From assembly GCA_963715195.1 (NCBI GenBank), contig CAVQRT010000001.1, positions 1-22,985 on the forward strand: a stretch of 22,985 nucleotides of DNA, read 5' to 3'. This stretch comes from Thermodesulfovibrionales bacterium (GTDB lineage: Bacteria > Nitrospirota > Thermodesulfovibrionia > Thermodesulfovibrionales > SM23-35). Positions 1,392 to 22,853 of the stretch are shown in pieces. Numbering within the stretch: the stretch's first letter is position 1; every line of letters begins with the position of its first letter. Under the pieces are notes generated by a model. That model searched no databases, had not been told where the DNA came from, and worked only from the letters and a program-made list of their open reading frames with translations. Both the position numbers and the translations under genes were made by a program.

Positions 1392-1404
1392 TATAATGGT
1401 TTAA

Positions 1405-1531
1405 CAGGCTGCTGAAAAAGTCTGTTTCTGTCACCCTGAACTTGTTTCAGGGCCTCCTTTTTGATTTTAGGAGATGCTGAAATAAATTCAGCATGACAAA
1501 CTGTCCCGAAAGGGACTTTTTCAGCAGCCTG
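1405..1531. mobile_element. MITE-like element with 18-bp perfect terminal inverted repeats, enclosing a TGTCA...TGACA palindrome pair
   Basis: CAGGCTGCTGAAAAAGTC (1405-1422) and GACTTTTTCAGCAGCCTG (1514-1531) are exact reverse complements; no coding capacity. Confidence 0.6.
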
Positions 1532-1602
1532 CTCTCGGATATTTATGAAAGGTTTAAAGAGCAGTCATGAAATTGGGTTTGGAGGGAACTACACCGGAAT
1601 TT

Positions 1603-3428
1603 TTATATGCCGCAGGCTTTTTCGCCGGTTTTGATCACTATGCCGTCGAAACCTTCATTTACCATCGAATGAGCCTCTTCAATATCATAAAATCCGGTAA
1701 TACGGACCTTATAAAAGTCCCCCTGATGGCAGATCTTAATTTTTTTATTTGAAACTTTTTTCTGCAGGCGTTTCTTGAATGTCGCAGCGGACTCCTGAGA
1801 CTTGAATGCCCCGACCTGCAGTGCATACGAGGTATCCTTTTCATCGTGTTTCATCGCGGATGATGAAGAGGTAACCTGTGTTCTTTTTTCGATATTAGAG
1901 CTTTTCTCTGATAAGGCCTTCTTTTCCGGGGGTACACCCTTAGCATTTAAATACACGGGTCGCTTTGATTCCTTTCTCGATATCGCATCCTTCATGATAT
2001 TCGAGAGTGCGATAAAATCCGGTTTATAAATCTCCCCTCTCCTGAACCAGGTTTCCTGCATTCCTGAGACAAATATCTCAAGTTCAGCCAACGCAATGTT
2101 GAGATCATTGATTGCAACCAGATATTCATTGTATGCCTTGATCAATTCGGCTTCTGCATTCAGAAAGTTGACCATTTTGATGGTGCCTTCCGAATATTTT
2201 TCCGCCGTCTGTTTGAAACTATACTCAGCTGTCTTCAGCTGCTTCTCTTTCACCTCCACTTCCCTTGTCTTTTCCTGAACATGTCCGCCATGCTTCCTCT
2301 GCCTGGAAAATGATCCTCTTCGTCAGATCCTCATGCTCGTATTGCTGCTTCTGCATTAATGCTTTTGCCTTTGACACTTCTGCCTTTGTCCTGTTCCATT
2401 CAAACAGCGACCAGTCGAGCTGCAGAGATAGCATCCATTGCTCGGGTCTCGTCACATTGGTTTCCTTCTGCATCATGTATTTCCCTTCGAGGGAAACCTG
2501 GGGCAGGAAACCACCGCGGGCAATTATGATATCTGAGCCTGCTGCCTGCGCCCGTGCAGAAGACATCTTTAGGTCCTCCCTGTTTGAGAGTGCGAATTCT
2601 TTGACCTCATGAAGCGGAGCAGTGAAGAAACTATTGAGCGGTTCGCCTTTTAGCATAAGGTTTTCGTCGTCCCGGCAGTAAATAAGCCTTTTGAGGTTGC
2701 TGAGCGCGGTCTCAGCCCGGTTCCTTGCTTTAAACACTTCCAGTTCGGAGGCAGCGAGATCGTTTTCAGCGATGAACAGGTCTTCCTTTCTCACATATCC
2801 TTCCTTATTGCGCTCCTGAATAACCCTGAAGCCTTCTTTTTTTGCATCCAGAATCTTTTCGAGTATACCGGTATACAACTGTTCTTTTAAAACTTCATGA
2901 AAAACCTTTTTTACCTCAAAGACGAGCAGTCTTTTCTTTCTCTCAAGATCATATCTCGCCTCTTCATTTAATTTTTGAGACTTTTTGTATGAATGCGTTA
3001 AACGCATGCCGGTAAAGACGGGTTGTTCAATGCTGAATGCAACACCATAGGTTTCCTGATTGTCAGCAGAGAGCTCAACATCAGACGGGTGGAACTCCTG
3101 AAAGAAAGGTGTCGCGGGGGACGAGGAAAAAATCATCTTTGTCCCTGAGGTCATAGTTTCCCTTTAATTTTAACGAGGGAAGAAACCGTGAGGATGCCAT
3201 TTTGACATCTTCTTCCGCTGCCCGAACATCCATTTCGTGTGACTTCAGCCATCGGTTATTTTCTAATGCCCCGGAAATACAGTCATCAAGGGTGAGTTCA
3301 AGGGCGGATGCAGGGTGAGTGAGTAAAGAGAATGTGAAGATGAAAGCTATGAAGAATAGAGTGCAAGAAATGCCCCTCTTTGGTAAAGAGGGGTTAGGGG
3401 AGATTTTCTGAATAAACAATGAAAACAT
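1603..3428 (-). CDS. TolC-family outer membrane efflux protein with C-terminal SPOR domain (2 apparent frameshifts)
   Basis: ORFs 3081-3428, 2225-3154 and 1603-2259 join into signal peptide + LTLDDCISGALENN...FLPSLKL...IEQPVFTG...FLPQVSL...LDWSLFEW (OEP repeats), then YALQVGAFKSQESA...FYKVRITGF (SPOR). Confidence 0.88.
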
Positions 3429-3472
3429 TTTTCTTAAAATCCCTCCTAACCTCCCTTTGCCAAAGGGAGGAA
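3373..3472. repeat. CCCCTC/AAAGGGGG palindromic repeat pair overlapping the TolC start
   Basis: CCCCTCTTTGGTAAAGAGGGGTTAGGGGAGATTTT and AAAATCCCTCCTAACCTCCCTTTGCCAAAGGGAGG in inverted orientation. Confidence 0.75.
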
Positions 3473-3514
3473 TAATAATATTGCTAAGTTTATAGCGAAC
3501 TCTGTTTCAATGTT

Positions 3515-3615
3515 CGTCATTATCCGGCTTGGCGGGAATCCTTCCGCTTCCTCCTTAGTAAAGGGGGATAAAAAGGTTTGTTTGTAAGAAAGATTCCGGA
3601 CAAGCCGGAATGACA
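3515..3615. repeat. CGTCA...TGACA REP-like dimer
   Basis: CGTCATTATCCGGCTTGGCGGGAATC ... GATTCCGGACAAGCCGGAATGACA; right half recurs at 9533-9583 and 18080-18107. Confidence 0.75.
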
Positions 3616-3650
3616 ATTTTACCCTATATTGACCTGAAGTCATAGACTTC

Positions 3651-4675
3651 TTATCGCAAAAATCGTACCGTAACGGTCATATTGTTCTTGAGACCTGTGA
3701 AATCTTCCAGCCGGATGAAAATAACCTGTGTATTAATGTCAAAAGATGCCATGGGATCGAAGGTCCGCTGGGATTTTCTCTTTACGTTCGGAAGAACCTT
3801 ATACACTGTTCCGTTATATGTTTTGTCCTTGTAAGCGTCTGTTATCACTTCAACGGATTGCCCCTCTTTGACCTTTCCGACATCGGTTTCTTCAAGCTCT
3901 GCCCGGATTCTCAACTTGTCCGGATTGACAAGTTCAAGGACAGGAGTGCCGACGTCAACTGATTCACCAACATGCTTGAATTTTTCAGTCACGACGCCAT
4001 TGAACGGAGATGTCAGCGTATAGTCTTTCAAAGATGCCTGATAGTATCTCAATTCTGAATCAGCCTTCTCAGCCGACGATTTTGCCTGCTCGATCTCTTC
4101 GTCTCTTACGCCCTTTTTCAGTTTTTGCATATTCGTTTTGGATTCATCGAATTCTGCAGATGCTCTTTTGAACTGCTCTTCTGCCTTGCTCAGTTCTATG
4201 AGCGTTGTAGCGTCTTTTTCATAGAGCCTCTTTTGTCTCTCGAACTCATCCTTGGATTCCACGTATTTCGCATCTGCCGACTGCATCCTGCTCTTTGCCA
4301 TTGCAACATCCTCGCGCCGGTAGCCTGACTCAAGCTCTCTGAGACGTGAGCGCGCCTCGAAGAGGGTGGATTCTGCCATTTTTACCTTTGCCCTAATCTT
4401 GCTGTCATCGAATTTCACCAGGGGTGTTCCCGCCTTTACCTCATCGCCTTCTTTTACGAGGAAGCGTAGATATTGTAGAGGAAACCTGGCTGCTTGCGTC
4501 GATCTTCTCCTCGCTTTCCACGATTCCTTTCGCTGTTATAAACATCTGTTTTGTTTCAGCACGCTGGGCCGTCGCGTTTTTTTTCCGTAAAATGCCTCGG
4601 ACCGAAGAGGGCAAGAAGAACAGCAACGACGAGAAGACCTATCAACAAAAAGATCGCAAATCGGTTATTTTTCAT
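3651..4675 (-). CDS. HlyD/DevB-like periplasmic adaptor (membrane fusion protein), frameshifted in the 5' part
   Basis: ATG 4675 overlaps the ATPase stop (ATGA); N-terminal TM MKNNRFAIFLLIGLLVVAVLL; AKGIVES, KEGDEVKAGTPLVKFD (lipoyl half), coiled coil, TLTSPFNGVV...GESVDVGTPV, VGKVKEGQSVEV. Confidence 0.9.
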
Positions 4676-5361
4676 GCTTGCCCTCCTTTTTCCCGAATAA
4701 TCATGCCATCCTCCATGTAGAGAATACGGTCAAAGACCTCTTCGACCCTGCTATCATGTGTTGCCACAAGGATGCTTTTCTTCCTCCTGGTGGCAAGTTC
4801 TTTAAGTATTTCCATGACTTTCCTGCCGTTCATCTGATCAAGGTTCCCCGTCGGTTCGTCCGCGAGAATAATGGGGGAGTCCGCTGCGAGGGAACGAGCT
4901 ATGGCAACCCGTTGTTTTTCTCCACCGCTCAGATCTCTCGGGAGGAAATGCAAACGGTCTGAAAGGCCCACACCGGCAAGCATTTCCTTTGCTTTCTGCC
5001 CGGCATTTTCGGTCACCCCTTTTAATTTTAAAACTAACACGACATTTTCAAGAGCGGTCAGAGCAGGGAAGAGATTGAACCCCTGAAAAATGAAAGAGAT
5101 AAATTTTTTCCTGATGCCCGGCAGAGAGGCTTCCCCGAGGGTATTTGTTTCAATGCCATACAGTTTGACTGTACCGCTTGTCGGCCGCAGTATGCAGCCG
5201 ATCAGGGAGAGCAGGGTTGTTTTTCCGCTGCCTGAAGGCCCGAAAAGGCCTACCATCTCGCCTTCATGCAACTTAAAACCAACGGATGAGACTGCCCTGA
5301 CCTCAACCTTTCCTTCTGAGTAGATCTTTGTTAAATCCCCTGCAATGACAGGTGGTTCCAT
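4672..5361 (-). CDS. ABC transporter ATP-binding protein (LolD/MacB/DevA type)
   Basis: Walker A GPSGSGKT, Q-loop FIFQGFNL, signature LSGGEKQRVAIAR, Walker B ILADEPTGNLD, switch VATHD. Confidence 0.96.
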   Translation of the reverse strand: MEPPVIAGDLTKIYSEGKVEVRAVSSVGFKLHEGEMVGLFGPSGSGKTTLLSLIGCILRPTSGTVKLYGIETNTLGEASLPGIRKKFISFIFQGFNLFPALTALENVVLVLKLKGVTENAGQKAKEMLAGVGLSDRLHFLPRDLSGGEKQRVAIARSLAADSPIILADEPTGNLDQMNGRKVMEILKELATRRKKSILVATHDSRVEEVFDRILYMEDGMIIREKGGQA

Positions 5362-5539
5362 GCTCTACCTCATCTGCAGAGAGCATGCTGATTGTAAAGA
5401 ATACAGCTTAGGCAATTTCGGTTGATAAGAATAGCCACTAAACATGCTCAATCTTATCATAAAAAAGGAAAAGTTTGCAGTGCGCAGAAAGAGAAGCAAG
5501 CATCTTAAAGGAGATGAAAAGTATTCTTAAAATATAAAC

Positions 5540-5587
5540 TATTTATCGGTAATCCCCCTCTATCCCCCTTTAGAAAAGTGGGAATTA
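5540..5587. repeat. CCCCTC/AAAGGGGG palindromic repeat (left arm of the pair flanking acyltransferase 1)
   Basis: TATTTATCGGTAATCCCCCTCTATCCCCCTTTAGAAAAGTGGG; near-identical inverted copy at 6495-6538. Confidence 0.75.
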
Positions 5588-5714
5588 TTCAAGGAAAAAA
5601 AAGAAGAAATTTCCTATTTTTGCTGGGAGTACGGGGAGGAATCGAATTTCGTAATAAATTACTTAATTTCTACTATAATTGTGTATAATAGCGCATCTTT
5701 ATAAGGACTATCAC

Positions 5715-6386
5715 ATGGTGCAGTTCCATTTCAGAAAAGTTGTTGATAAGGCTGAGCTCGAAGAAGTCTTCCGGCTGAGATATAAAGTCTACTGCGATGA
5801 GTGGGGATTTGAAAAAGCAGAGGATCATCCGGGCGGCCTCGAATTCGACATCTTCGACAGCAGTTCAATGCACTTTATTTCATTGAATGAAACAGGGCAG
5901 ATAATCGGTACCATCCGCATCATCCTGAATTCTGAAAAAGGATTCCCTATAGAAAACCATTGCACGATTGATGCTGATCTTTCACACCTGAACAGGCAGA
6001 AACTCGGAGAAATATCGCGTTTGGCTGTCAGCAAGGAATTCCGCAAGAGATTCGAGGACCGCTTTATCTATGAAGGGACTCAGGAATACATTCAGCCGCA
6101 GTCTGTTGCTCACGAAAGAAGGACTCGCCACGAGATTGTCATCGGTCTCTATAAATGTATTTATATAGAGAGCAAAAGATTGGGTTTGACCCACTGGTAC
6201 GCTGTCATGGCAAAAGGGCTCTATATCCTATTGAAGCGGATGGGCATTATCTTTAAGCCCGTTGGTCCTGAAAAATTTTATCATGGATTGAGAACTCCAT
6301 ATCTGGGGAATATCGCTGATATAGAAGCTGAGGTGTCGAGACTGCACCCGGAGCTCTTCAAGGAATTCCAGGAAGCCCTGAAATAA
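5715..6386 (+). CDS. N-acyl amino acid synthase, PEP-CTERM/exosortase-associated acyltransferase type (GNAT/FeeM/LuxI-like fold)
   Basis: ATG 5715 after AAGGA; EVFRLRYKVYCDEWGFE...GLEFDIFD, IGTIRII, GEISRLAVSKEFRKR, WYAVMAKGL, VGPEKFYHGLRTPY; tandem TATAAT at 5674 and 5684. Confidence 0.9.
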   Translation: MVQFHFRKVVDKAELEEVFRLRYKVYCDEWGFEKAEDHPGGLEFDIFDSSSMHFISLNETGQIIGTIRIILNSEKGFPIENHCTIDADLSHLNRQKLGEISRLAVSKEFRKRFEDRFIYEGTQEYIQPQSVAHERRTRHEIVIGLYKCIYIESKRLGLTHWYAVMAKGLYILLKRMGIIFKPVGPEKFYHGLRTPYLGNIADIEAEVSRLHPELFKEFQEALK

Positions 6387-6429
6387 ATAGTTCTTCTGCA
6401 AAAAATCTGAAGAAAAAAATTATTTTCAG

Positions 6430-6538
6430 TAATCCCCCTCCATCCCCCTTTATAAAAGGGGGAATAATTACCTTGTTATAAAAGAATAAAGGACCCCACT
6501 TTTCTAAAGGGGGGTAAGGGGGGATTATTCGATAAATA
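6430..6538. repeat. Complete CCCCTC/AAAGGGGG palindromic dimer between convergent genes
   Basis: TAATCCCCCTCCATCCCCCTTTATAAAAGGGGGAA ... CCCCACTTTTCTAAAGGGGGGTAAGGGGGGATTA. Confidence 0.8.
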
Positions 6539-6559
6539 TTTGTGTCTTTTTGTGCAAGT

Positions 6560-7429
6560 TTACGTGCTTAGTGCGCGGGCTTTGCGGAGAATAAGCTTCC
6601 TTCGCAGCCTGTGCAAAAGATTTTTGCCGCCTGATCTCATGCACCCAATTTTGAATTTTCCCCTCATGAGGTCGATCTGCATATAATAGGGTACAGCTCT
6701 GACCTTGCCTTTCCCTGTGAGTATCTTCACTACTTCAGTAGCAACAAGAGATGCGGCAAGGGTGCAGGCGGGAGATACTGCTGGCCCGGTTTTTTGCCTG
6801 AGGCTCACCTTTGACATGTCTATGTACCGGATGTGATATGGGCGAGGCGCGAGCCCTGCTGCAAAGGAGGCGATTTTTTCAAGATATTCCATGGCATCCG
6901 ATATTCCGAAGTATTCATCAAACGACATGCCCCGGGGAGAGAAGACCTGCAAGGTTGCACCGAATCCCAGTGGAGCTGATGTTATTGCGTATATGCCGTT
7001 TTCTCTTGCCTTTTCAAATAACAGTCTTCTCGCATCGATCTCGAAAAAATCTATCCCGTCGATAACAATATCCGCACCCTCGAGAAAAGACTGCACATTG
7101 TCTGTAGCAATCTTTTCAGCAAGAAGCTTTATTTCGGCGTAAGGATTGATATCTTTCAGCATGCGGGCCATTATTTCAACCTTCTTTTCACCGAGGGTGC
7201 TCATTGCGGCTCCATACTGCCTGCTGATATTGACCGCTTCATAGATGTCGGGGTCTGCGATACTGAATTTCCCGACCCCAAGCCTGGCGAGGGTTAGCAT
7301 ATGGATGCCTCCAACTCCGCCAGCGCCCGCAACGGCAACTCTTGACTTCAAAAGCTTTCTCTGATCGTCTTCCGTGAGAAGTCCTATATTCCTTGAAAAA
7401 GGTTCTTTTATGAGAGCGTCGATGTTCAT
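6560..7429 (-). CDS. ThiF/MoeB (E1-like) adenylyltransferase, MoeW/TyzB-like; putative oxazolone-forming cyclodehydratase
   Basis: FSRNIGLL, VAVAGAGGVGG, ADPDIYEAVNISRQ, KKVEIMAR, DIVIDGIDFF, APLGFG, GPAVSPACTLA; lacks the two CxxC Zn motifs of true MoeB/ThiF. Confidence 0.9.
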   Translation of the reverse strand: MNIDALIKEPFSRNIGLLTEDDQRKLLKSRVAVAGAGGVGGIHMLTLARLGVGKFSIADPDIYEAVNISRQYGAAMSTLGEKKVEIMARMLKDINPYAEIKLLAEKIATDNVQSFLEGADIVIDGIDFFEIDARRLLFEKARENGIYAITSAPLGFGATLQVFSPRGMSFDEYFGISDAMEYLEKIASFAAGLAPRPYHIRYIDMSKVSLRQKTGPAVSPACTLAASLVATEVVKILTGKGKVRAVPYYMQIDLMRGKFKIGCMRSGGKNLLHRLRRKLILRKARALST

Positions 7430-7599
7430 GTATCGATTGTCTTATCTCGAACACTATATCATAAAAAATGGCTATTCCCAAAATGAAGAAAATTTAATTT
7501 GATTTTTTCATCTTTAATTTGGGAAAATTGAAACGTTGTGGATTTGAATACAGATAGTTACATTAAATATACAATACGGAATTATCTGAGAGAGGTACG

Positions 7600-8238
7600 T
7601 TGCTGACATTTCACAAGGTAGAAACAGAAGAGGATTTAGAAAATGTTTACCGGCTCCGTTATCAGATATACTGCATTGAAAAAGGGTATGAGCCGAAGGA
7701 AAAATATCCTGACGGCATCGAAATGGATGAGTATGATGTGTACTCGATTCACTTCACCGCAAAAATACGTGACCATACTGTCGGGACAGCCCGGCTGATT
7801 CTCAACAACCCCCTTGGTTTTCCTGGTGAAAAATATTGTAAAACTGACATCGCTTCCTTCAGGTTGAAAAAGGAACAGACCGTTGAAATATCCCGCTTTG
7901 CTGTGAGCACCACATTCGTCAGGGCATTACAATTCGACAGGACAAGAATCCTCATCGGCCTCTTCAGGGAACTGTATCAGGAGACCAAGCAATTGGGGAT
8001 CGAAAATTTGTGCGCAGCCATGGGGAAGGGTCTTCAGAGACTTCTCTGTAAATACGGCATCGTATTTTCGCCCTTAGGGCCGATAATTGATTACCACGGT
8101 CCCCGGGCACTCCACGTCACTTGCATGGCAAATATCGAGGAAGACATTTTCCTGAAGGACTGTGATCTCTTCAAATTTATTTCTTCTCCGGTGAATTTTA
8201 ATCCGTATGCATTAATCCCTCAATACCATCCTGTCTGA
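7600..8238 (+). CDS. Second N-acyl amino acid synthase (FeeM/ExoAT/OxzA-like acyltransferase)
   Basis: TTG start after GAGAGG; VYRLRYQIYCIEKGYE...GIEMDEYD, VGTARLI, VEISRFAVS, AAMGKGL, LGPIIDYHGPR. Confidence 0.88.
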   Translation: MLTFHKVETEEDLENVYRLRYQIYCIEKGYEPKEKYPDGIEMDEYDVYSIHFTAKIRDHTVGTARLILNNPLGFPGEKYCKTDIASFRLKKEQTVEISRFAVSTTFVRALQFDRTRILIGLFRELYQETKQLGIENLCAAMGKGLQRLLCKYGIVFSPLGPIIDYHGPRALHVTCMANIEEDIFLKDCDLFKFISSPVNFNPYALIPQYHPV

Positions 8239-8245
8239 TTCTGCT

Positions 8246-9325
8246 GTGCCTGGTGAAGAAGAACTAAGAAGAATTGTCGCTGCCGGCACTCTTGCACCCT
8301 CAGGGGATAACTGCCAACCGTGGAAGCTGTATTTTGACGGCGCGCAATTGCACCTCATCAATCTGCCTGAACGTGATACCTCCCTCTATAATGTCAATGA
8401 CATAGCATCCTTTATAGCCTTTGGCGCAATGCTGGAAAACATGAGCATTGCCGCACAGAGTCTCGGCTACATACCTTCTGTCTCACTGTTTCCAAAGGGC
8501 ATGAAGATACCTTTGGTAGCAAGCATTCAGTTTGCCAAGGGACAGACGCTGGATGATCCGCTTCTCCCTTATATGCCGCAACGATGCGTAAACAGAAAAC
8601 CGTACAAGCGAAAGCAATTAACGAAAGCTGATATCGATGCATTATACAGGACAGTTGGTGAACGGAAAGAAGCCAGACTGTGTCTTATAGACAAGCAGAG
8701 CGAGAAAAACCTTCTGGCAAAGGTCCTCGCCATGAATGACAGAATCGTTTTTGAAAATGAAAATTTGCATAATTTCCTTTTCACCCACATTAGGTGGTCG
8801 AAGGACGAAAGAGAGACAAGCAGGGACGGATTAAGCATAGACTCGCTTGAATTGGGCGCATTCCAGTCCAGAATTATGAAAGTCCTTTCATCATGGAAAC
8901 TTGTTCAATTGCTGAACAGGTTTGGGTTCAGCAGGTTTGTGCCACAGCAGGCCTATCAATTGTGTAAGGGAGCATCTGCTCTGTGCATTCTCTCATATGC
9001 GGGAACAGGGCTGGACAGTTACCTGAACGGCGGGAGGGTGCTTCAGAGGATCTGGCTGACAGCAACTTCATTGGGTCTGTCGCTCCACCCCATGACAGGC
9101 CTCATATACCTGATATATGCCGTCCACAGTGGCGGCAAAGGCTTAAATGACAATCATAAGCGAGTGCTTCTTACGTCATTTGATGCCCTGAAGAAACTTT
9201 GCCCGTTAGGGGCAAATGAATCGTATATCATGGCTTTTCGTATCGGTTACGCAGACCCTCCTTCTGACAAGTCCCTTCGGTTGCCGTTGGAAAAGGTGCT
9301 CGTGTTCGGGCCTTCGCCATATTAA
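8246..9325 (+). CDS. Nitroreductase-superfamily flavoprotein (Acg/TyzC-like, duplicated fold); putative dehydrogenase/oxidase
   Basis: AGTLAPSGDNCQPW, FGAMLENMSIAA, RCVNRKPY, GGRVLQRIWLTATSLGLSLHPM, FRIGYADPPSDKSLRLPL; 7 bp downstream of acyltransferase 2. Confidence 0.88.
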   Translation: MPGEEELRRIVAAGTLAPSGDNCQPWKLYFDGAQLHLINLPERDTSLYNVNDIASFIAFGAMLENMSIAAQSLGYIPSVSLFPKGMKIPLVASIQFAKGQTLDDPLLPYMPQRCVNRKPYKRKQLTKADIDALYRTVGERKEARLCLIDKQSEKNLLAKVLAMNDRIVFENENLHNFLFTHIRWSKDERETSRDGLSIDSLELGAFQSRIMKVLSSWKLVQLLNRFGFSRFVPQQAYQLCKGASALCILSYAGTGLDSYLNGGRVLQRIWLTATSLGLSLHPMTGLIYLIYAVHSGGKGLNDNHKRVLLTSFDALKKLCPLGANESYIMAFRIGYADPPSDKSLRLPLEKVLVFGPSPY

Positions 9326-9408
9326 GAGATCCTCACAAATAATCAATTCCCTGAAAAGTGTGATACTATGAGAGTATGAGGAACATGAGCAGCAACATAT
9401 TGTTAAGT

Positions 9409-9583
9409 AATCTCCCCTCACCCCTCTTTATGAAAGAGGGGATTATCTTGCATTGATTTTTGATGGGATTATATCAATCCATATCTTTTTTAGAGGGAGT
9501 TACACACTCCTGCACCCCTCTCAAGAGGGGGGGAAAGATTCCTGCCCTCTGAAAAGACGGCAGGCAAGCAAGCCGGAATGACA
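9409..9583. repeat. Cluster of palindromic repeats of both families
   Basis: AATCTCCCCTCACCCCTCTTTATGAAAGAGGGG; CCCCTCTCAAGAGGGG; GAAAGATTCC[TGCC...GGCA insert]CAAGCCGGAATGACA. Confidence 0.7.
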
Positions 9584-9642
9584 TCATAGATGCCTATCAG
9601 CTTTCATGCTGTGAATTTCGTTCATTGGTCGTCGATTTAAAA

Positions 9643-10395
9643 ATGAATCCAGACAGCAATTATATCGATAAACTAACCAGGCTTTCAGATTTTTTGGAAA
9701 AACAGGTTGACCTCGATGCATGCCTTCGCGAACTCTCTGCAAAAGCTGCAGATATCCTCAATTCTAAAAACTGTTCAATTATGCTCCTGAAGGAAAGCGA
9801 TGATGAACAGGGGCTTAAGTTAAGAGTCTTCGCGCATTGTGGAAGTCTCCCTGAAGAGGCTTTCCGTGAACGTATGAATGTGCGTGAAGGGATTTCAGGC
9901 CACGTTGTAGCAACAGGAAAGGCACTGCTGATTGAGGATATCGAAAATTCACAATTTTCTCACGCAGCCCGGCGTCATTACCCTAGCAGGTGCTTGATAT
10001 CTGCGCCGATCATCATGAATAAGAAGGTCATCGGTGTTATACATGTGAATACCCCCAAACGTAAGCATATTTATAACCTGGAAGATTTGAATCTGCTGAA
10101 TATTGTGGCCATGCTGGTGAGCAAATCAATCCAGGTCATCCAGGTGCAGAAGTTAATGCAATCTCAATACACGATTTTCGCCATGGCTGAAAGAAACAAA
10201 AAGGAATTATCCAGTATTGCTGCAACAGCCTGTCAAGACCTTGATAAGGTTGCAAAACTGTTAGCAAAGACATTTTATCGGGAAATGAGCAAGGCCGGAT
10301 TCGGCCCAGATCATATCATTGATGCAGCCTCGGAAATCATTTCACTGCTGAATGACAGTGTCGTAAGACATAAAAAACGGCGGGAACGGAGTTAA
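9643..10395 (+). CDS. Stand-alone GAF domain protein with helical C-terminal extension
   Basis: CSIMLL...EGISGHVVATGKALLIEDI...ISAPIIMNKKVIGVIHVN...YNLEDLNLLNIVA; no kinase, GGDEF or HTH output recognised. Confidence 0.85.
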   Translation: MNPDSNYIDKLTRLSDFLEKQVDLDACLRELSAKAADILNSKNCSIMLLKESDDEQGLKLRVFAHCGSLPEEAFRERMNVREGISGHVVATGKALLIEDIENSQFSHAARRHYPSRCLISAPIIMNKKVIGVIHVNTPKRKHIYNLEDLNLLNIVAMLVSKSIQVIQVQKLMQSQYTIFAMAERNKKELSSIAATACQDLDKVAKLLAKTFYREMSKAGFGPDHIIDAASEIISLLNDSVVRHKKRRERS

Positions 10396-10432
10396 AGAAG
10401 GTTTTTCTTAAATTGTTGTGTGTATGGTTTTG

Positions 10433-10503
10433 TGTCATTGCCCGACTTGATCGGGCAATCCAGGTAAAGGGAATGGATCCCCCGGTCAAGCCGGAGGATG
10501 ACG
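10433..10503. repeat. TGTCA...TGACG REP-like dimer between convergent genes
   Basis: TGTCATTGCCCGACTTGATCGGGCAATCCA ... TGGATCCCCGGTCAAGCCGGAGGATGACG. Confidence 0.8.
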
Positions 10504-10551
10504 AAATATGAGTTTAGGGATAGACTATTGGTAGACTGATTTGATTTGAGC

Positions 10552-11247
10552 TCATTTATCCCTTGTCTTCCCCACCAACCTCTCCACGAATTCCTTCGTA
10601 AACGGGCTGCCGTGTGAGGCATGGATGACCTTTGGCGATAATGAAAGTACCCTCCTGATGCTTTCTTTCAATTGGGATAAATCGTTTGCAAACAACGGCA
10701 AGTGAGGAGTTCTTTTCCGGAGAATGCCGCCCATGAGCAGATCTCCGATGATTGCTGTCCTATCAGATAAAATCACCGATACCGAACCGGCAGTGTGCCC
10801 CGGCGTGTGGATGATTCTGCCGTCTATACCAAAGTCTTTCAGATCAATATCTGTTTCGAAGGCAATATCAACCTCAAGTGCTTTATAAATGGGTTCATCC
10901 TTTCTTATAAGCAGTGACTTGAAAAGTCGGCCCGCTAACCCTATTGGCACCCCAATATAATTGATGCCCTTTTTAAGATATTCTGCATCCGCCCTGTGCA
11001 TTCCGATCGGCGCGCCCGTTAATTTTCTTAGTTCATCCGCACTGCCATAGTGGTCAATGTGGCCATGGGTAATAATTATTAAAGAGACATCCGATGGTTC
11101 GATATCATTTTCACGGAGAGCATCGAGTATCTTTTCACCATTCCCCGGGTAGCCTGTATCAACGATTACGGCTTTATTGCCTCTGATAATAAATGATTTG
11201 ACAGCGCCGAGTTTTATGGGAATGATGGAAAGCGAGGTATTTCTCAA
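10552..11247 (-). CDS. Metallo-beta-lactamase fold hydrolase
   Basis: IVDTG, THGHIDHYG (HxHxDH), HTPGHTAGS, IIGD, ASHG. Confidence 0.93.
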   Translation of the reverse strand: MRNTSLSIIPIKLGAVKSFIIRGNKAVIVDTGYPGNGEKILDALRENDIEPSDVSLIIITHGHIDHYGSADELRKLTGAPIGMHRADAEYLKKGINYIGVPIGLAGRLFKSLLIRKDEPIYKALEVDIAFETDIDLKDFGIDGRIIHTPGHTAGSVSVILSDRTAIIGDLLMGGILRKRTPHLPLFANDLSQLKESIRRVLSLSPKVIHASHGSPFTKEFVERLVGKTRDK

Positions 11248-11251
11248 TCTC

Positions 11252-11483
11252 TCAGTCAGGAGTAAACTGCTGAAGTTGTTTTGAAACAGAACTGATGACT
11301 TCCTTTATCTTCTCTATCAAAATCGAGGCATTTCGCAGCGCTCAGGGCAGCGTAATAACTTCTATTTACAGCAGATTCCCACCTGCTCTCCTTAAAAAGG
11401 AGTCTTGCATCTTCGAGCAATCTCTCAGCCTTCTCAAGTCGATACTTTGAGAGCGTCTTCTTCTCTTCTTTGTCGAGAGTCAT
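11252..11483 (-). pseudogene. HEPN domain toxin with apparent internal deletion
   Basis: N-terminus LEKAERLLEDARLL...SAVNRSYYAALSAAK is joined out of frame to a C-terminal-like helix NASILIEKIKEVISSVSKQ...TGA(11252); central region missing. Confidence 0.75.
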
Positions 11484-11791
11484 AGAAGATTATTCCCTCC
11501 TTTTTAATACTGTTGAGAAATGGGCTGCCGAGCCTCTCGTGGAATTTCAATTCCTCTTGTGAACGGATTGTAAGGGAAAAAGATATGTCCGTTGCAAGTT
11601 CATACATATAAAAAATATCAATGATCTTATTTTTCAATTCTCGCGATTTTTCATCTACAACGATCAGTACGTCGAAATCAGAATCGCCCCGGAAGTCTCC
11701 CCGAGCCCTCGACAATGGCCTCCAAGATTCTCCTGTCGGCAGACAGTTCACCGGCGATCTTCTGCAAAATATCCTTTTCTTTTTTAAACAT
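11434..11791 (-). CDS. Minimal nucleotidyltransferase (MNT) antitoxin, frameshifted at the GS motif
   Basis: ATG 11791 MFKKEKDILQKIAGELSADRRILEAI, frame change, then SRARGDFRGDSDFDVLIVV...SPFLNSIKKEGII; overlaps the HEPN start. Confidence 0.8.
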
Positions 11792-11857
11792 ACGTGAATG
11801 CTATCACACGTCATTGCGGTATTACAAGTTTGAGGGAAGGTATAGATATTGAGGTAA

Positions 11858-11923: not shown

Positions 11924-12151
11924 GTGGTTACAGCTAAACTTACATCAAAAGGACAGATAACCATACCGAAGGAGGTGAGGGCCAAACTCGGCATTGCTTC
12001 CGGCGAAGATATTGTTTTTGAGGAGAAAAATGGTCTTTTTTATATTAAAAAAGGTATCAGAAAATCTCCTTTTAACAAATGGATAGGATACCTGAAAACC
12101 GCTCAGGTAAAAAAGACAGATGCAATCATTGAGGCGTTGAGAGGGAAGTGA
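11924..12151 (+). CDS. AbrB/MazE/SpoVT-family antitoxin
   Basis: AKLTSKGQITIPKEVRAKLGI; GTGA overlap with the toxin gene. Confidence 0.93.
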   Translation: MVTAKLTSKGQITIPKEVRAKLGIASGEDIVFEEKNGLFYIKKGIRKSPFNKWIGYLKTAQVKKTDAIIEALRGK

Positions 12152-12871: not shown

Positions 12872-14006
12872 TCATCCTCTAAACAATATCGCCGGATCAA
12901 TTCGCCTGATTTTTCTTATGGAGATATACGCCGAGGCAAAACACATGAGGAAGGTCATGAAAAATACGATGAGATTTGTCCACCATTTGACGACCATTAC
13001 CATATCAATGGCCTCATAAAATTTGACTGAAATGAGAGTTATGATCAAGCTGATCAGATAGCTGAGAAGCGCGATGATAAAGGCCTGGGTGAAAATGATC
13101 TTATAGACATCCATATTCTCTGCACCGAGTGCTTTCAGTGTGCCGAATTCCTTTATATGCTCAGTGGTCGAATTATAGATCGTCTGCCCAACAATTAAGG
13201 TGCCCACCAGGAAACTTATTAATATCGTGATCAGAAACGCATACCCAACACCTGTTTCAAAAGTCCAATACATTCGCGTTTTCCTGCTAAATGCAGCTTT
13301 TGAATACACATCAACCCCCTGCAATTTCTCTTTCAGGCTTTCGATAACTTTGTTTACCGAATAACCTGGTAAAACCTTGGCGATGATAAAAACAGTGTTA
13401 TCTGGACCGACCCAACCGATCAAGACTTTGCGCGAGTGTGTACGATGTAAATATTATTGGTGCAGTGGTGAAGGATTTTACTTCCTCTGATATCCCTACA
13501 ATCTGTAACCTTCTCCAGAATATGTCTCTATATTCGCCAACTTTTATCTTACCCAGTCGTCTCATAGCAGATTCATCAACGATAGCAAAGTCTACCGTTC
13601 TTTACTGACTCTTGCATCGCCGATCTTCATTTTCCAGGGTCCGCCAATCCCTGTATCCGGGTTGTATCCAACGATTTCAACCTGTTCAGTTCCACCTTCT
13701 TTTTGTCTTGATATTAGCGCCCAGGTAACGATCAACTTTTCTGCCCACTGCACACCTTCAGTGGAGAGCACATGGTAATAAAGGTATTCCGGGAATCGGA
13801 TGGGAAAAGTCAAAGTTTTTACTGTTTTTTGATGTTATCCAGATATCTCCGGGTGAATGATCAATTATGGTAGATGATGTTTCCATCAGACCAAAATAGA
13901 TTCCTAGTTGTGCAAAGATAAGACTTACAGCGAATATGACGCCAATCAGGGTAATAAGGGTTCTGACTTTATCGTAGAGGAGAATTTTGAGAGCAACGTC
14001 AAACAT
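12872..14006 (-). CDS. ABC transporter permease (MacB/FtsX, DevC-like), about 3 apparent frameshifts
   Basis: Fragments 13758-14006 (KVRTLITLIGVIFAVSLIFAQLG...GDIWITS), 13592-13813, an unlisted frame (AIVDESAMRRLG...SFTTAPIIFTSY) and 12872-13423 (IKEFGTLKALGA...IRRIDPAILFRG). Confidence 0.9.
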
Positions 14007-16539: not shown

Positions 16540-17551
16540 TTACGTCCTTTTGCGGCGCGAGACTACCGCTAAACCTAACAAACCAGCTCCGAGCAAAAGT
16601 AGGGTACCCGGTTCAGCAGCCTCGGCGACAACTTCTGTTTCTTCATTCATGGTGAGCGTCACAGTGTATCTACCTGCGGCCAATAAGTCAGTTATCACCT
16701 CAAAGTAATTATTAACCAAAACGGCTGGGTCTAAATCACCTACGACTGCAGATCCCAATTGAGTCGGGTCGTAGATTTCCTGGCCTTCTTCAGCGAACAC
16801 CGTTTGGCCTAAGTTGAGAGAAAATGGATCAAAATTTTCGGTGCCACCCTCAATAGTCCCAACAGTACCATCAGGAGCCCACTCGAGAACTTCAGCACCG
16901 GCAGCATTAGTAATAGTTAGTGACGCCGTAAGACCCCCGTAGCGACGCTAAGCCCACCAACCTGATAACCACCAATAGCAGTGATGATTGCCTCAATATA
17001 TGGAGCAGCATATCCTCCGAACTGAATTGACCCTGGAGCGGTCAGATCTACCTCAAATGTCACAGCCGTTACCGATCTGTTGCTTCCCACGGCACCTGCT
17101 GTCGTTGTTGGCGGCGCTGTTACGTTGGATTCAGCTTTGTTGACCGCCTGGATGCGGATTGAGTTAGTCGGGATAAGTTCTGACGTGAAATCATCCACGC
17201 CTTACTGACAGAATAATTTGTGTCGTCCAAGCCTAGCACGTCCAAATCAGTCGCAGAAGAAGGTTGCGGCGTTCCCTCGGGCTGCCATAATCGCGGTCAA
17301 TGGGGGGATGGCATTTGTGGGCCCAATCGAACCGTAGAGCCGGCTCCGTTTATTGTGGCACTAGCTTTTTCGGTATAAGCGGGTAATGTGATGGTCGGAT
17401 ATATCTGGTCACCATCGGCATTATAGAACGTGAACAAAGCGTCGTAAATATTGTTCCAAGAGACGGCATAGGAAATTACGTCAGCACGTGCTATTGCGGC
17501 AAGCCCCAAGACAAGTATTGAAACCATGAACAATAACAACATCTTTTTCAT
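16540..17551 (-). CDS. PEP-CTERM sorting domain protein 1 (AEP variant), frameshifted
   Basis: SD AAAGGAGGT; signal peptide MKKMLLLFMVSILVLGLAAIARA; Thr/Ala/Gly-rich fragments; C-terminus AEPGTLLLLGAGLLGLAVVSRRKRT. Confidence 0.88.
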
Positions 17552-17653
17552 TTCTTTCACCTCCTTTCCCTTTAAATTTACTTTTGTTTGTTCTTTTTTC
17601 CATCTATAACACCTCCTTTACGGTCTAATTATCTTTTGGATTTAACCCCTCTT

Positions 17654-17671
17654 ATGCAACCCGTGTGCCAG
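17654..17671 (-). promoter_or_regulatory. Sigma-54 (-24/-12) promoter of PEP-CTERM gene 1
   Basis: Minus strand CTGGCACACGGGTTGCAT matches TGGCAC-N5-TTGC. Confidence 0.9.
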
Positions 17672-19251: not shown

Positions 19252-19880
19252 TTACTTCTTGAGATTGCTCCTTCTGAAAAAAGCAAGGCCTGCAAGGCCG
19301 GAACCGAGCAGGAAAAGCGTTGCCGGTTCTGGGATGGATTCAGTTTGGAAGCTCAGGGCAATTTTACTTACAGAGTAACGACAATCAGGATCAAGAGCGT
19401 AACCGATAAGGCCATCTCTTAATCCAGTCATTGTAAAGCAGGAGTTCAGATGCATTGAAATCAAGTAAACTATCCAGGATTGATCCATTTCGTGCACTTT
19501 TTTCGTTGTTTACTTCACGCTCGTTAGTATCTTCGTACGTGAAGAGCAGTATGCCCTGATTGTGAAAAAAGTCGTGTCACCGGGGCCATCATTGTATCTT
19601 TCTAACTCCAAGGGGAGCAGTTGTCGAGTAAATGGATATAAGAATATTCAGTTTCAATTTTCCAGTTGTTTATGTCTGATAGGGTAAACGTTGCCTCGGT
19701 AATAGTCTCGTCTGAACCAAGGACCTGGAGTAATACCCCATGTGTATGCATAACCATGGTTCAGATTCAATATTATTCGGATTGAGACTAAATTCATAAC
19801 TGACTGCATAAGCATCTTTTCCTACCGAACAGGCAAATGATTGCGAGTGCTGCACAGAGGATGATGAATGATCGTTTCAT
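19252..19880 (-). CDS. PEP-CTERM sorting domain protein 2, multiply frameshifted (pseudogene or sequencing errors)
   Basis: SD AAGGAG, ATG 19880 MKRSFIILCAALAIICLFG; fragments HGYAYTWGI, DINNWKIE, LYIHLLDN-like, ALDPDCRY; C-terminus IPEPATLFLLGSGLAGLAFFRRSNLKK. Confidence 0.85.
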
Positions 19881-20484: not shown

Positions 20485-21493
20485 ATGAAAAACAAACAAT
20501 ACTCATATTATTTCTGCGTAGACAAAAATATGTGTGTCAGTTCCTGGGGAAAAGATGCAGAGCATTTTACCGGGAAGACTTCATCATCAGCCCTCAGGAA
20601 AAAGTATTATGAGGTATTTCCGCGGCTGCGGATGAACGGGCAGGATGTTGTGCAAAAGAGCCTTCGGCATAACAAGACATCGATGCTCAATGGTTATACG
20701 TTTAACTGTCTGTACGGTCAGAGCACGTCGGATATCAGGATAGACCCGCTCAGGGATATTGCGGGGAACGTTGTCGGAGCGAAAGTGGCGGTCTACGAAC
20801 CATCCGGAATGCCCTGGAGTTCGGGCACTTGAAGACTCGCGACACTTCATAAACATTGGAAAGCAGGCTACGATCTTTGCGCACAGAATCAGAAATCCCC
20901 TGAATGCCATAAAAGGTGCTGTTGTATACCTGAGGGAAAAGTATCAAAAGGATGAGACATTGCGGGAATTCACCAATATCATGGAAGATGAGATTGGAAA
21001 GCTCAACAACTCCATCTCGAAATTCCTCGGTGCTTCGCTGTCGGACATGGAACCGGCAGAGACCGATATGAATCTGATCCTGAAAAAGATAGAAATTATC
21101 ACTTCCCTTCAGGCGAACAGCCATAAAATAAAATCGAGCTACGAATATGGGAAGATTCCGCCCGTCAAGATAGATTCCTTTCAGTTTGAACAGGCAATTC
21201 TGAATGTCATCAATAATTCCCTTGAAGCTATGAGGGAAGGAGGGAATCTGAACGTGAGGTCAGGAGGGATCAAACGGCTCGGCAAGAAATGGGCCATGAT
21301 CGAGATTTCGGACACCGGCGGCGGAATTAATAACAGTAAAAAAAGTGATTCCCCGGCGGGGTCTTTTCATGAGGGAAGGGGGTTTGGATTGTTTATTACC
21401 CATGAAGTTCTCAAGTCCGTCAGAGGGGATATGGAAATAAAGAGTAAAAGAGGTTCCGGGACAACAGTGAAAATGTATTTGCCAGGGGCGTAG
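20485..21493 (+). CDS. Cytoplasmic PAS-domain sensor histidine kinase (1 apparent frameshift near 20790)
   Basis: PAS-like FCVDKNMCVSSWGKDAEHFTG...PLRDIAGNVVG; H-box FAHRIRNPLNAIKG; N-box FEQAILNVINNSLEAM; G1 ISDTGGGI; G2 GRGFGL; GTTV. Confidence 0.88.
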
Positions 21494-21494
21494 C

Positions 21495-22853
21495 ATGAGA
21501 ATGCCGGATACGAAGGGTAATGTACTGATCGTTGACGACGAACCGAATGCCGTCAGGGTTCTCTCAGCGATACTGGGAAATCAGGGTTATTCCATTCTTG
21601 AATCTCATGATGCTACCAGTGCAGTCAATGTGCTCGGGCACAACGAGGTAGATGCAGTCATAACGGACATCAGGATGCCCGGGGACGACGGCCTGTATTT
21701 ATATGATTACATTTCCGAAAAATATCCTCAGATTCCTGTAATCTTTTTAACGGCCTACGGCACTGTTGACTCGGCCGTCCATGCGATACTCGACGGAGCG
21801 TTTTACTATTTCATCAAGCCGCCGGATTATGAGAAGCTCAAAAGCATACTCGCACGGGCGGTGGAACAGAGCTGTCTGAAAAGAGAGCTTGAATACCTCA
21901 GAAAAAAACTGCCCGCTGAAAGTCATCGGACCCAAATATCTGGTTCCACACCCGAAATGCTCAGGATATTCCAGACGATTGAGGCAGTCAGAGATTCTGA
22001 GAGCAGCACGCTCATCTGTGGTGAAACCGGTACAGGAAAGGAGCTCATTGCAAAGACATTGCATTACAGCAGCATCAGATCTGACAGACCATTCGTCCCG
22101 GTAAACTGTGCTGCGATCCCTCGAGAACTGATGGAATCGGAACTCTTCGGGTATGAGAAAGGTGCGTTTACCGGGGCGCTGTCGAGAAGAGTGGGCAGGT
22201 TTGAAGAGGTGGCCGGAGGGACAATTTTCCTGGATGAGATCGGAGAGATGGAGCTTTCACTCCAGTCGAAACTCCTTCGGGTGCTTGAAGAGAGAGAAAT
22301 GGAACGGCTCGGGAGCAATAAAAAAATAAAAGTTGATTTCAGGCTCCTGTCTTCAACCAACCGCGACCTGCGCGAAGAAGTCCGGAACGGACATTTCAGA
22401 GAAGATCTCTATTACAGGATCAACGTAGTACAGATTACCGTGCCGCCCTTGAGAGAGCGGAAGGATGATATCCCGCTTCTTATCTCGGAATTCATGCGGG
22501 AATTCTGTGCCCGGGAAAATAAAGTGCTTGAGATATCCGATGAGGCGATGAAAATGCTGATGAGTTACCACTGGCCTGGCAATATCAGGCAGCTCAAGAA
22601 TGTGATAGAACGGGCGGTTGTCCTCGCCAAGAAAGGAAATATCAGTATCAGGGATCTTCCCGAAGAGTTCGGACATCGCAGAAGGCAGCAAAGCCGGAGC
22701 GAGAAAATAACGAGCCTGAAGGAATTCGAGATACTGCATATTGCCAATGTCCTGAAGGAATGTCAGGGGAATAAATCGAGAGCAGCAAAAATGCTTGGCA
22801 TATCACGGAAAGCCCTCTATAAGAGATTCAAGGAATTTCCCATTCTGATGTAA
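21495..22853 (+). CDS. NtrC/AtoC-family sigma-54-dependent response regulator (REC-AAA+-HTH)
   Basis: VLIVDDE, ITDIRMPG, GETGTGKE, ESELFGYEKGAFTGA, FLDEIGE, FREDLYYRINVV, WPGNIRQL, GNKSRAAKMLGISRKALY. Confidence 0.96.
   Translation: MRMPDTKGNVLIVDDEPNAVRVLSAILGNQGYSILESHDATSAVNVLGHNEVDAVITDIRMPGDDGLYLYDYISEKYPQIPVIFLTAYGTVDSAVHAILDGAFYYFIKPPDYEKLKSILARAVEQSCLKRELEYLRKKLPAESHRTQISGSTPEMLRIFQTIEAVRDSESSTLICGETGTGKELIAKTLHYSSIRSDRPFVPVNCAAIPRELMESELFGYEKGAFTGALSRRVGRFEEVAGGTIFLDEIGEMELSLQSKLLRVLEEREMERLGSNKKIKVDFRLLSSTNRDLREEVRNGHFREDLYYRINVVQITVPPLRERKDDIPLLISEFMREFCARENKVLEISDEAMKMLMSYHWPGNIRQLKNVIERAVVLAKKGNISIRDLPEEFGHRRRQQSRSEKITSLKEFEILHIANVLKECQGNKSRAAKMLGISRKALYKRFKEFPILM

Follow-up and report, generated by a model that had tools for sequence, protein, structure and literature searches.

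A likely split acyl-oxazolone lipid gene set beside exporter and PEP-CTERM genes in a Thermodesulfovibrionales bacterium

The 22,985-nucleotide stretch analysed here (the window), from a Thermodesulfovibrionales bacterium, carries at positions 5715-9325 genes for two N-acyltransferases (AT1 and AT2), a ThiF-like enzyme and a nitroreductase-fold oxidase. It raises the question of whether a probably anaerobic bacterium encodes a pathway for acyl-oxazolone (azlactone) lipids, the known versions of which use O2 for desaturation. We consider it likely that the four genes are a split form of this pathway, and that the lipid, probably exported by the neighbouring pump, acts with the PEP-CTERM system. 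The evidence is what was observed: the genes present and their families, the fold, the conserved motifs and linkage, and the fusions. The window is the entire contig C1 of a genome bin of 2.8 Mb in 36 contigs, which is 97.84% complete and 6.57% contaminated.

Because of the analogy with OxzAB, TyzACB and TrzAS, we infer the pathway roles of AT1, AT2, ThiF and the flavoenzyme, as well as each chemical step, the substrates, export, the connection to PEP-CTERM function and the activity of the locus in this strain. AT1 and AT2 would transfer a fatty acyl group from acyl-acyl carrier protein or acyl-coenzyme A to the amino group of an amino acid. ThiF would then adenylate the carboxylate of the N-acyl amino acid, the amide oxygen would close the 5(4H)-oxazolone ring, and the nitroreductase-fold flavoenzyme would introduce an α,β double bond. 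The product would be either the acyl-oxazolone itself or the N-acyl dehydro-amino acid left when its ring opens, as in the stieleriacines. The adjacent MacAB/DevBCA-TolC-like pump probably exports the lipid, which, jointly with the PEP-CTERM/exosortase system of surface proteins, would function in the cell envelope or serve as a signal.

The four core genes and their families

The core genes are as follows (positions in the window, strand, description).

5715..6386, + strand: AT1, N-acyl amino acid synthase of the FeeM/TIGR03694 type (TIGR03694, Pfam FeeM, Acetyltransf_5)
6560..7429, − strand: stand-alone ThiF-like enzyme of 289 amino acids (aa), predicted ATP-dependent cyclodehydratase (NF006077)
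7600..8238, + strand: AT2, a second, more divergent N-acyl amino acid synthase (TIGR03694, FeeM)
8246..9325, + strand: flavin-dependent oxidase of the nitroreductase superfamily, single-chain double fold, 359 aa, predicted desaturase

A first-pass annotation of the sequence had called these genes contiguous and intact, and positions 5715-9325 indeed hold four uninterrupted open reading frames (ORFs) in the order AT1, ThiF, AT2, nitroreductase. The ThiF gene lies tail to tail with AT1 and head to head with AT2, at distances of 173 and 170 bases, respectively, and the nitroreductase gene starts 7 bases downstream of AT2. The ATG start of AT1 lies inside an ORF that opens with TTG at 5679.

Both acyltransferases belong to TIGR03694, the PEP-CTERM/exosortase system-associated acyltransferases: their scores of 196.9 and 155 bits exceed the cut-off of 111.95, and the genome has an exosortase-family match and, in the window, two PEP-CTERM tails. 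AT1 covered model positions 7-235 of 241 and also matched Pfam FeeM (9.2e-13) and Acetyltransf_5, whereas AT2 was matched in two stretches (FeeM 3e-14). AT1 was 87% identical to the acyltransferase on a contig of a Thermodesulfovibrionales metagenome-assembled genome (L027 among the related loci described below) and 54-56% identical to those of Nitrospirota and Geobacteraceae loci. AT2 was 38% identical to AT1, and its closest match outside the window reached ~40% identity.

ThiF scored 391.6 bits against the NF006077/PRK08223 equivalog model (cut-off 266) over positions 7-285 of 296, and 9.1e-50 against Pfam ThiF. It contains two cysteines only (C222 and C263) and no CxxC, so that the zinc tetrad of MoeB and ThiF is absent, just as the first-pass annotation had noticed. 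None of 90 related ThiF domains carried two CxxC motifs, and loss of the zinc site is therefore a trait of the family. By contrast, the nucleotide-binding glycine-rich loop (G35, G37, G38, G40, G41), R70-Q71, K83 and the adenylation-motif aspartates D124 and D127 were each kept in 87 to 90 of the 90 relatives. In TrzS, according to the available text of PMC12856293, the motif Asp is required for cyclisation. The ThiF domains of ThiF-nitroreductase fusions also matched NF006077, with 452.6 (L081) and 425.9 bits (P0176) for two proteobacterial fusions and 360.3 bits for one from Desulfobacterales (L040), and a planctomycete split-form ThiF scored 408.1 bits. At E 1e-5, searching the window's own genome with a family-specific ThiF profile brought up no further ThiF. 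A predicted complex of ThiF with the nitroreductase scored 0.00 against a mark of 0.32; controls were absent, and the value speaks neither for nor against binding.

The nitroreductase matched NF005901, the TrzS/Rv1355c family, with 221.7 bits over model positions 374-718 of 722, which is the whole oxidase domain, and it matched the C-terminal half of the ThiF-oxidase fusion model NF011424 with 227.4 bits. Its NF005901 score was higher than those of proteobacterial ThiF-nitroreductase fusions (191.8 and 183.2). A structure model made with 58 aligned relatives had a predicted local distance difference test (pLDDT) value of 96.7. The sole full-length match of this model in the Protein Data Bank (PDB) was the Acg homologue 2YMV (template modelling (TM) scores 0.75/0.81, E 6e-16), while ordinary nitroreductases covered it only partly (TMq 0.30-0.41). 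The predicted fold is thus single-chain and Acg-like, which bears out the earlier label of an Acg-like nitroreductase. However, by the Acg family FMN-binding oxidoreductase model (NF047509) the protein falls outside that family, with a score of 143.9 bits at a cut-off of 199. The host genome holds one copy of the gene.

Linkage, fusions and trees of related loci

Stand-alone ThiF relatives are 281-303 aa long; 1937 proteins were found at E ≤0.001 among 7353 candidates, and the named relatives came from Geobacteraceae, Trichloromonas, Nitrospirota and Dissulfurispiraceae. Gene neighbourhoods were collected by scanning one genome per species with ThiF; 122 of 206 candidate stretches were confirmed and the best 80 kept, of which 41 have at least 5 kb on both sides of ThiF (flanked loci). 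Genes in these loci were taken as stop-to-stop ORFs and assigned with profiles grown from the window proteins, and with BLASTP for the exporter genes. Acyltransferases were counted with an iterated profile checked against Pfam; BLAST alone would have given 22 of the 80 loci instead of 50. The counts were as follows.

Nitroreductase of the window type: 57 of 80 loci, 35 of 41 flanked loci
ThiF and nitroreductase in one ORF: 15 of 80 loci, 8 of 41 flanked loci
Acyltransferase: 50 of 80 loci, 31 of 41 flanked loci
Two or more acyltransferases: 12 of 80 loci, 9 of 41 flanked loci
Three acyltransferases: 2 of 80 loci, 1 of 41 flanked loci
Nitroreductase and acyltransferase together: 39 of 80 loci, 27 of 41 flanked loci

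In addition, the NF011425 model (989 positions) unites an acyltransferase, a ThiF and a nitroreductase part in a single chain. Conserved adjacency, together with the fusions seen in several lineages, provides strong evidence, at the level of gene organisation, that the three predicted activities belong to one pathway. Pfam FeeM was matched by 65 of 66 acyltransferases (64 locus ORFs and the window's two).

The ThiF tree (IQ-TREE in quick mode) had 94 rows, namely the window, 79 of the 80 loci, 10 named proteins and 4 outgroups, which were MoeB-like genes from four related genomes; L027 was dropped as a 165-residue fragment. The family stood apart from the outgroups with a Shimodaira-Hasegawa-like approximate likelihood ratio (SH-aLRT) support of 97, and the root is insecure because the outgroups and L078 are long branches. 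The 15-row clade that included the window (support 98) contained stand-alone forms exclusively, and these came from Geobacteraceae, Desulfuromonadales, Desulfobulbaceae and Nitrospirota. The remaining members were in a clade of 74 rows (95), with fusions from Desulfobacterota, fusions of OxzB architecture from Pseudomonadota, a betaproteobacterial split form and planctomycete split forms. In the nitroreductase tree (FastTree, 65 rows) the window also lay in a 15-row clade (95), which had 9 loci in common with the window's ThiF clade. The two trees agreed in their main clades, the NF006077 scores were in keeping with them, and split and fused forms were mixed within both families. Given the same main groups and the 9 common loci, ThiF and the nitroreductase appear to have largely evolved as partners. 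As far as it could be tested, the proposal that the window holds an unfused acyl-oxazolone set therefore holds up, on the NF006077 match, on an NF005901 score above those of the fusions and above the score against the Acg model, and on the mixing of split and fused forms.

Other arrangements were seen in some related loci. L057 (Thermoanaerobaculia; 3658-6951 and 7821-10946) and L083 (Acidobacteriota; 2236-6261) have ORFs of 1042-1342 aa with other domain combinations: acyltransferase with nitroreductase, ThiF with two nitroreductase domains, and a nitroreductase preceded by ~690 unassigned N-terminal residues. In L007 (9799-11268) and L021 (8941-10173) a GT28/UDP-glycosyltransferase-like gene comes after the nitroreductase, which hints that some versions of the pathway might glycosylate the lipid; the window lacks a gene of this type. 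Among the 66 acyltransferases scanned, 6 from related loci carry a cyclic-nucleotide-binding domain and 1 a PilZ domain, and acyltransferase ORFs of 380-520 aa occur in, for example, L032, L042, L046, L068, L075, L077 and L078. Second-messenger control of the first pathway step may be common among the related loci.

Exporter, PEP-CTERM genes and the state of the contig

The functional unit extends past 5715-9325 to the exporter, a GAF-domain protein and the PEP-CTERM genes. The features around the core are as follows.

1603..3428, − strand: TolC-like outer membrane factor with a C-terminal SPOR domain, in three frame pieces (Pfam OEP, SPOR)
3651..4720, − strand: HlyD/DevB-like membrane fusion protein (adaptor), frame broken (Pfam HlyD_3, 3.2e-18 for 3651-4418)
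4672..5361, − strand: ATP-binding cassette (ABC) ATPase of a MacB/DevA-like exporter (DevA family 213.3 bits, cut-off 295.8; LolD 199.4)
5536..5589, also 3362-3405, 6416-6469, 6495-6527 and 9394-9452, no strand: intergenic repeat like a repetitive extragenic palindrome (REP-like; direct family D1, inverted pairs I1, I2, I6 and I7)
9625..10395, + strand: GAF-domain protein, possible sensor or regulator of the module (Pfam GAF_2, 4.2e-16)
12872..14006, − strand: pieces of a DevC/MacB-type FtsX permease (TIGR01185 DevC)
16540..17560, − strand: EDSAP-1-like PEP-CTERM protein gene, in three frame pieces (NF041538 on three ORFs)
17655..17670, − strand: exact match, with 0 mismatches, to TGGCAC-N5-TTGCA, which we take to be the sigma-54 promoter consensus
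19252..19497, − strand: second ORF with a PEP-CTERM tail (TIGR02595, 26.6 bits, cut-off 16)
20759..22853, + strand: pair of a histidine kinase and a sigma-54-dependent response regulator (PEP_resp_reg, TIGR02915)

By resemblance, the exporter would be a tripartite pump of the MacAB/Dev type. It falls below the cut-offs of the DevBCA heterocyst-glycolipid exporter, with DevA as listed above, DevB at 75.9 of 129 bits and DevC, a fragment, at 93.7 of 290.35 bits. This last score comes from one permease ORF (model positions 211-380), and a separate ORF matched positions 5-67 with 21.6 bits. In the 11 loci of the window's clade (L007-L016 and L027), ATPase orthologues of 62-87% identity adjoined ThiF in nine (L007-L013, L016 and L027, as opposed to L014 and L015), and ATPase and adaptor were both found at 48-92% identity in nine of the 11. 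Across all 80 loci, BLASTP at 1e-5 found the ATPase in 29 and the adaptor in 20, and the count of 29 overstates the orthologues because ABC ATPases are common. The L027 contig had a gene order identical to that of the window, with 87-92% protein identity. The nearest relatives with full context (L007, L010 and L016) showed a MacB-type permease, ATPase, adaptor, TolC-like protein and ThiF, with an acyltransferase and a PEP-CTERM gene adjacent, and the permease gene of relatives is intact and immediately upstream of the ATPase gene. In the window, unlike in these relatives, the biosynthetic genes lie between the permease pieces and the ATPase. L021 had instead an ATPase, a permease, a LolA-like protein and a DUF1302 barrel.

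The link of the GAF protein to the module is weak because homologues occurred in 2 of the 80 loci alone, at 44% identity in L012, between ThiF and the nitroreductase, and at 27% in L014. A metallo-beta-lactamase-fold gene at 10552-11247 was considered as a ring-opening hydrolase and dropped, as it had no homologue in the 80 loci (BLASTP 1e-5). The region that separates the cluster from the permease pieces holds two toxin-antitoxin-like pairs, at 11256-11814 (a small ORF, then an ORF with nucleotidyltransferase-like sequence, both labelled by eye) and at 11924-12615 (a 75-aa ORF, then a PIN-domain protein with a zinc-ribbon insert; Pfam PIN 4.2e-09). Further on, a B12-binding radical SAM gene occupies 14436-15635 in at least three frames, its best model being TIGR04072 (lipid-biosynthesis B12/radical SAM protein, 100.6 bits), and it is followed on the opposite strand by an intact UbiE-like methyltransferase gene at 15632-16381.

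The PEP-CTERM context consists of the two tail-bearing genes, the two-component pair and, on contig C6 of the same genome, an Exosortase_EpsH match (31.1 bits, cut-off 25.7). The EDSAP-1-like gene matched NF041538 at positions 1-69, 119-184 and 254-307, and its PEP-CTERM domain scored 23.2 bits (cut-off 16). The response regulator scored 383 bits against TIGR02915, below the PrsR cut-off of 502.6, and the AtoC and NtrC models scored higher. The sigma-54 consensus match, the only exact one in the window, lies 95 bases upstream of the EDSAP-1-like gene and fits a putative control of PEP-CTERM cargo genes by sigma-54. For the four core genes, no upstream sigma-54 site with ≤2 mismatches was found, and scans of 5300-10600 gave promoter-like sigma-70 sites (12 versus 9.1 expected) and terminator-like sites (6 versus 4.5 expected) at chance level. 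A home-made pattern, of which at least one hit was visibly false, found PEP-CTERM-like tails in 38 of the 80 loci (55 hits, 63 per Mb) and 9 hits in the window's own genome (3.2 per Mb). Among the papers searched, none joined oxazolone enzymes to the PEP-CTERM system. The nearest to such a link are the paper on the stieleriacine cluster (PMC7293339, as far as its available text goes) and a 2011 study by Craig et al., reportedly on the acyltransferases alone.

Intactness is limited to the four core genes, and several flanking genes are in pieces. Frames are split in the TolC-like gene (2 breaks), the HlyD gene (at least 2, with the ~100 N-terminal residues of the adaptor in two other frames), the DevC-like permease, the B12 radical SAM gene and the EDSAP-1-like gene. 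Window positions 1-6197 have a second copy at C13:4993-11162 (93.6% identity, 375 mismatches, 22 indel events), which ends within AT1; there the TolC-like gene is one ORF of 633 aa and an S8 protease gene is frame-broken. This copy probably comes from another strain included in the bin and is not a true duplication. Relative to C13, the window has extra single bases at 2282, 3086 and 4464, and at 2282, 3086/3087, 4460 and 4598 contigs from other public runs are one base shorter, with a single contig of depth <6 behind each difference. No frame-breaking difference inside the four core genes was listed in the contigs of the other runs. Either the consensus of a two-strain bin is faulty at the frame breaks, or the exporter has decayed in this strain. 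Among 24 public metagenome runs no RNA run was listed as holding the window, and the best DNA holders carry 0.20-0.29 of the sampled words.

The REP-like repeat occupies four gaps (TolC-like/adaptor, ATPase/AT1, AT1/ThiF and nitroreductase/GAF) and thus flanks AT1 on both sides. It is palindromic, forming a C-rich plus G-rich hairpin with AT-rich flanks, and is also seen at 3550-3570 and perhaps at 10429-10529. Contig depth was 20- to 100-fold in three of four metagenome runs at the repeat sites 3369-3635, 5505-5771 and 6306-6572, whereas the site at 9394-9452 showed no such rise. As a separate stretch, 10429-10529 matches other contigs of the genome, as does 3419-3470.

Known systems, rival explanations and meaning

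The facts on OxzAB and TyzACB given in the first-pass annotation agree with the available text of PMC10404671 and of the de Rond preprint. TyzA, TyzB and TyzC (Rv2336, Rv2338c and Rv2337c) of Mycobacterium tuberculosis form an N-acyl tyrazolone pathway (PMC10404671). Compared by description and architecture, that system and the window share separate genes for three functions, an N-acyltransferase, a ThiF-like ATP-dependent cyclase and a single-domain flavin oxidase of the nitroreductase superfamily with ~340-370 aa, and in both an acyltransferase gene lies on the strand opposite to ThiF. However, TyzA belongs to a small, mostly mycobacterial acyltransferase group, as opposed to TIGR03694/FeeM in the window; Tyz has one acyltransferase and the window two; the Tyz host is aerobic; and the available part of the paper reports no PEP-CTERM context. 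OxzA and OxzB of Pseudoalteromonas rubra and other Proteobacteria (10.1101/2020.06.11.147165 and PMC12596934, in their available parts) combine the same N-acyltransferase, ThiF and nitroreductase activities. OxzB is one fused polypeptide, whereas in the window ThiF and the nitroreductase are separate genes on different strands. Proteobacterial fusions with OxzB architecture have ThiF domains 44-46% identical to the window's ThiF, which, unlike them, falls in the clade of stand-alone forms only; P. rubra OxzB itself is outside our dataset.

TrzA and TrzS (Rv1356c and Rv1355c) form the N-acyl tryptazolone pathway (PMC12856293). The window's nitroreductase resembles TrzS in matching the Rv1355c family model across the full oxidase domain. 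In contrast, TrzS is fused, its relatives are mostly Actinomycetota, and its ThiF half is weakly matched by the window's ThiF. The same paper, in its available text, describes a ThiF cluster of 2416 sequences that includes TyzB, OxzB and TrzS, most members of which adjoin an oxidase, an acyltransferase or both.

The putative stieleriacine cluster of Stieleria maiorica Mal15 (BGC0002080; PMC7293339, available part), here compared by description, is also similar: alongside several (four) N-acyl amino acid synthases, it encodes a ThiF-type 'TcdA-like dehydratase' and an oxidoreductase as separate proteins, and it includes transporters, a regulator and a PEP-CTERM gene. Stieleriacines are N-acyl dehydrotyrosines that resemble opened oxazolones, and the gene roles are those proposed in that paper. 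Unlike the window, the cluster lies in an aerobic planctomycete and adds a tyrosine C-methyltransferase and a fatty acid desaturase. The planctomycete loci L045, L054 and L038 had two to three acyltransferases and a ThiF 45-48% identical to the window's. Split forms are common and already in print, as are loci with two or three acyltransferases. The novelty is smaller than the first-pass annotation had claimed; clusters of this type have been described for the stieleriacines (2020) and in the TrzS paper (2025). An anaerobic counterpart is found on plasmid pDV of the strict sulfate reducer Nitratidesulfovibrio vulgaris Hildenborough (NC_005863.1), where a 'ThiF family adenylyltransferase', whose ThiF part shares 46.6% identity with the window's ThiF, has XrtA/PEP-CTERM polysaccharide genes on one side and THxN PEP-CTERM genes on the other; a sigma-54 regulator gene is close by. 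Unlike the window's proteins, the adenylyltransferase is annotated as one chain of 989 aa, the length of the three-part model NF011425/PRK14852, to which it is likened by that length.

Several observations weigh against a working acyl-oxazolone pathway in this host. The desaturation by TyzC depends on O2 (PMC10404671), and so does that by TrzS, whose saturated cyclised intermediate accumulates under O2 limitation (PMC12856293; both in the available text). The known desaturation thus uses O2, yet the host genome has a dsrA match (580.9 bits), and no oxygen reductase, whether COX1/heme-copper oxidase or cytochrome bd, was matched in the 97.84% complete genome. That the host, a putative sulfate reducer, is probably anaerobic is well founded on these genes, in agreement with the first-pass annotation, and many hosts of the family, including this one, appear to be strict anaerobes. 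The orthology to characterised enzymes is also indirect: our trees contain none of them, and the assignment to OxzB, TyzB, TyzC and TrzS would follow from profile scores and architecture. The best 120 hits of a profile from three proteobacterial fusions, and likewise the best 120 hits of a search with the nitroreductase of the betaproteobacterial split locus, included no Pseudoalteromonas or Mycobacterium protein, and a PDB search found no OxzB, TyzB or TrzS chain. ThiF matched the TrzS family model with only 57.4 bits over part of the domain. AT2 lacks a 21-residue loop relative to AT1 and is a predicted acyltransferase only. With the HlyD, TolC-like and permease genes broken, export, or the whole locus, may be inactive here. 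Finally, the module is rare among kin. Among 41 genomes of the closest kin, only the window's own had a ThiF above the cut-off, and another of its genus had a partial match at a contig end. In a sample of the phylum, 12 of 301 genomes had a ThiF above the cut-off, concentrated in two families (5 of 23 and 6 of 28). The module is therefore accessory and patchy and no part of the core physiology.

These points lead to other explanations. The pathway could halt before the unsaturated oxazolone, with the saturated 5(4H)-oxazolone serving as a reactive acyl donor, for example to exopolysaccharide or a PEP-CTERM protein, and the flavoenzyme active only on oxygen exposure or with another acceptor. 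The gene content of the host, the behaviour of O2-limited TrzS, the tight link to PEP-CTERM genes and the NCBI name of TIGR03694 as exosortase-system-associated would fit such a halt. However, the nitroreductase adjoins or is fused with ThiF in many strict-anaerobe lineages and its tree mirrors that of ThiF, which argues for a working partner there too, and the window shows no obvious gene for a protein that would accept or transfer the acyl group. We regard this halt as unlikely. The locus could also be a decaying remnant, in which the core ORFs are open and the module is dead, with the exporter, permease and PEP-CTERM genes as pseudogenes. The breaks in five neighbouring genes, the extra bases at 2282, 3086 and ~4460-4464 that are absent from C13 and other public-run contigs, and the unusual position of the biosynthetic genes relative to permease and ATPase speak for decay. 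Against this, the breaks may be consensus errors of the two-strain, partly contaminated bin, the base differences come from single shallow contigs, and the core genes show no frame-breaking differences in the contigs of relatives and match their models end to end; a dead module seems improbable to us.

Azole-forming systems of peptides that are ribosomally synthesised and modified post-translationally (RiPPs) also contain E1-like proteins and nitroreductase-fold dehydrogenases. ThiF and the nitroreductase could accordingly serve RiPP azole formation, or the sulfur-carrier and molybdopterin chemistry to which database names such as 'molybdopterin/thiamine biosynthesis adenylyltransferase', 'molybdopterin biosynthesis protein MoeY', MoeB and MoeW point. 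A sulfur-carrier identity is disfavoured, since ThiF scored 94.6 bits against a MoeB cut-off of 449 and 93 against a ThiF cut-off of 159 and has no zinc CxxC pair. YcaO (PF02624) had no match in the whole 97.84% complete genome, which speaks against an azole RiPP system, and the consistent partnership with FeeM-type acyltransferases argues in the same direction. Moreover, the M. tuberculosis proteins formerly named MoeW and MoeY have now been shown to be oxazolone enzymes (PMC10404671 and PMC12856293, available text). Such other chemistry is very improbable.

If the split acyl-oxazolone pathway is indeed what the four genes encode, the locus adds little to its chemistry. It fits a picture in which three enzymes travel with a tripartite exporter and PEP-CTERM genes across many lineages, strict anaerobes included. 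The physiological role of bacterial acyl-oxazolones is still open (PMC12856293, available text). What remains of interest is the anaerobic host against an O2-dependent desaturation, and the recurrent tie to exporter and PEP-CTERM genes. It raises the questions of which electron acceptor an 'O2-dependent' desaturase would use in organisms that avoid oxygen, and whether oxazolone lipids, or the opened N-acyl dehydro-amino acids, take part in exosortase-dependent floc or biofilm building. One speculative answer, to which we give a low probability, is that in strict anaerobes the oxidase passes electrons from oxazolone desaturation to an acceptor that is not O2, or is active only upon entry of oxygen; in this second case the exported lipid would be a signal of oxygen exposure that switches on PEP-CTERM/exosortase-dependent floc and matrix formation. 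If true, this would give a shared physiological role to the long-puzzling exosortase-associated acyltransferases and to the oxazolones.

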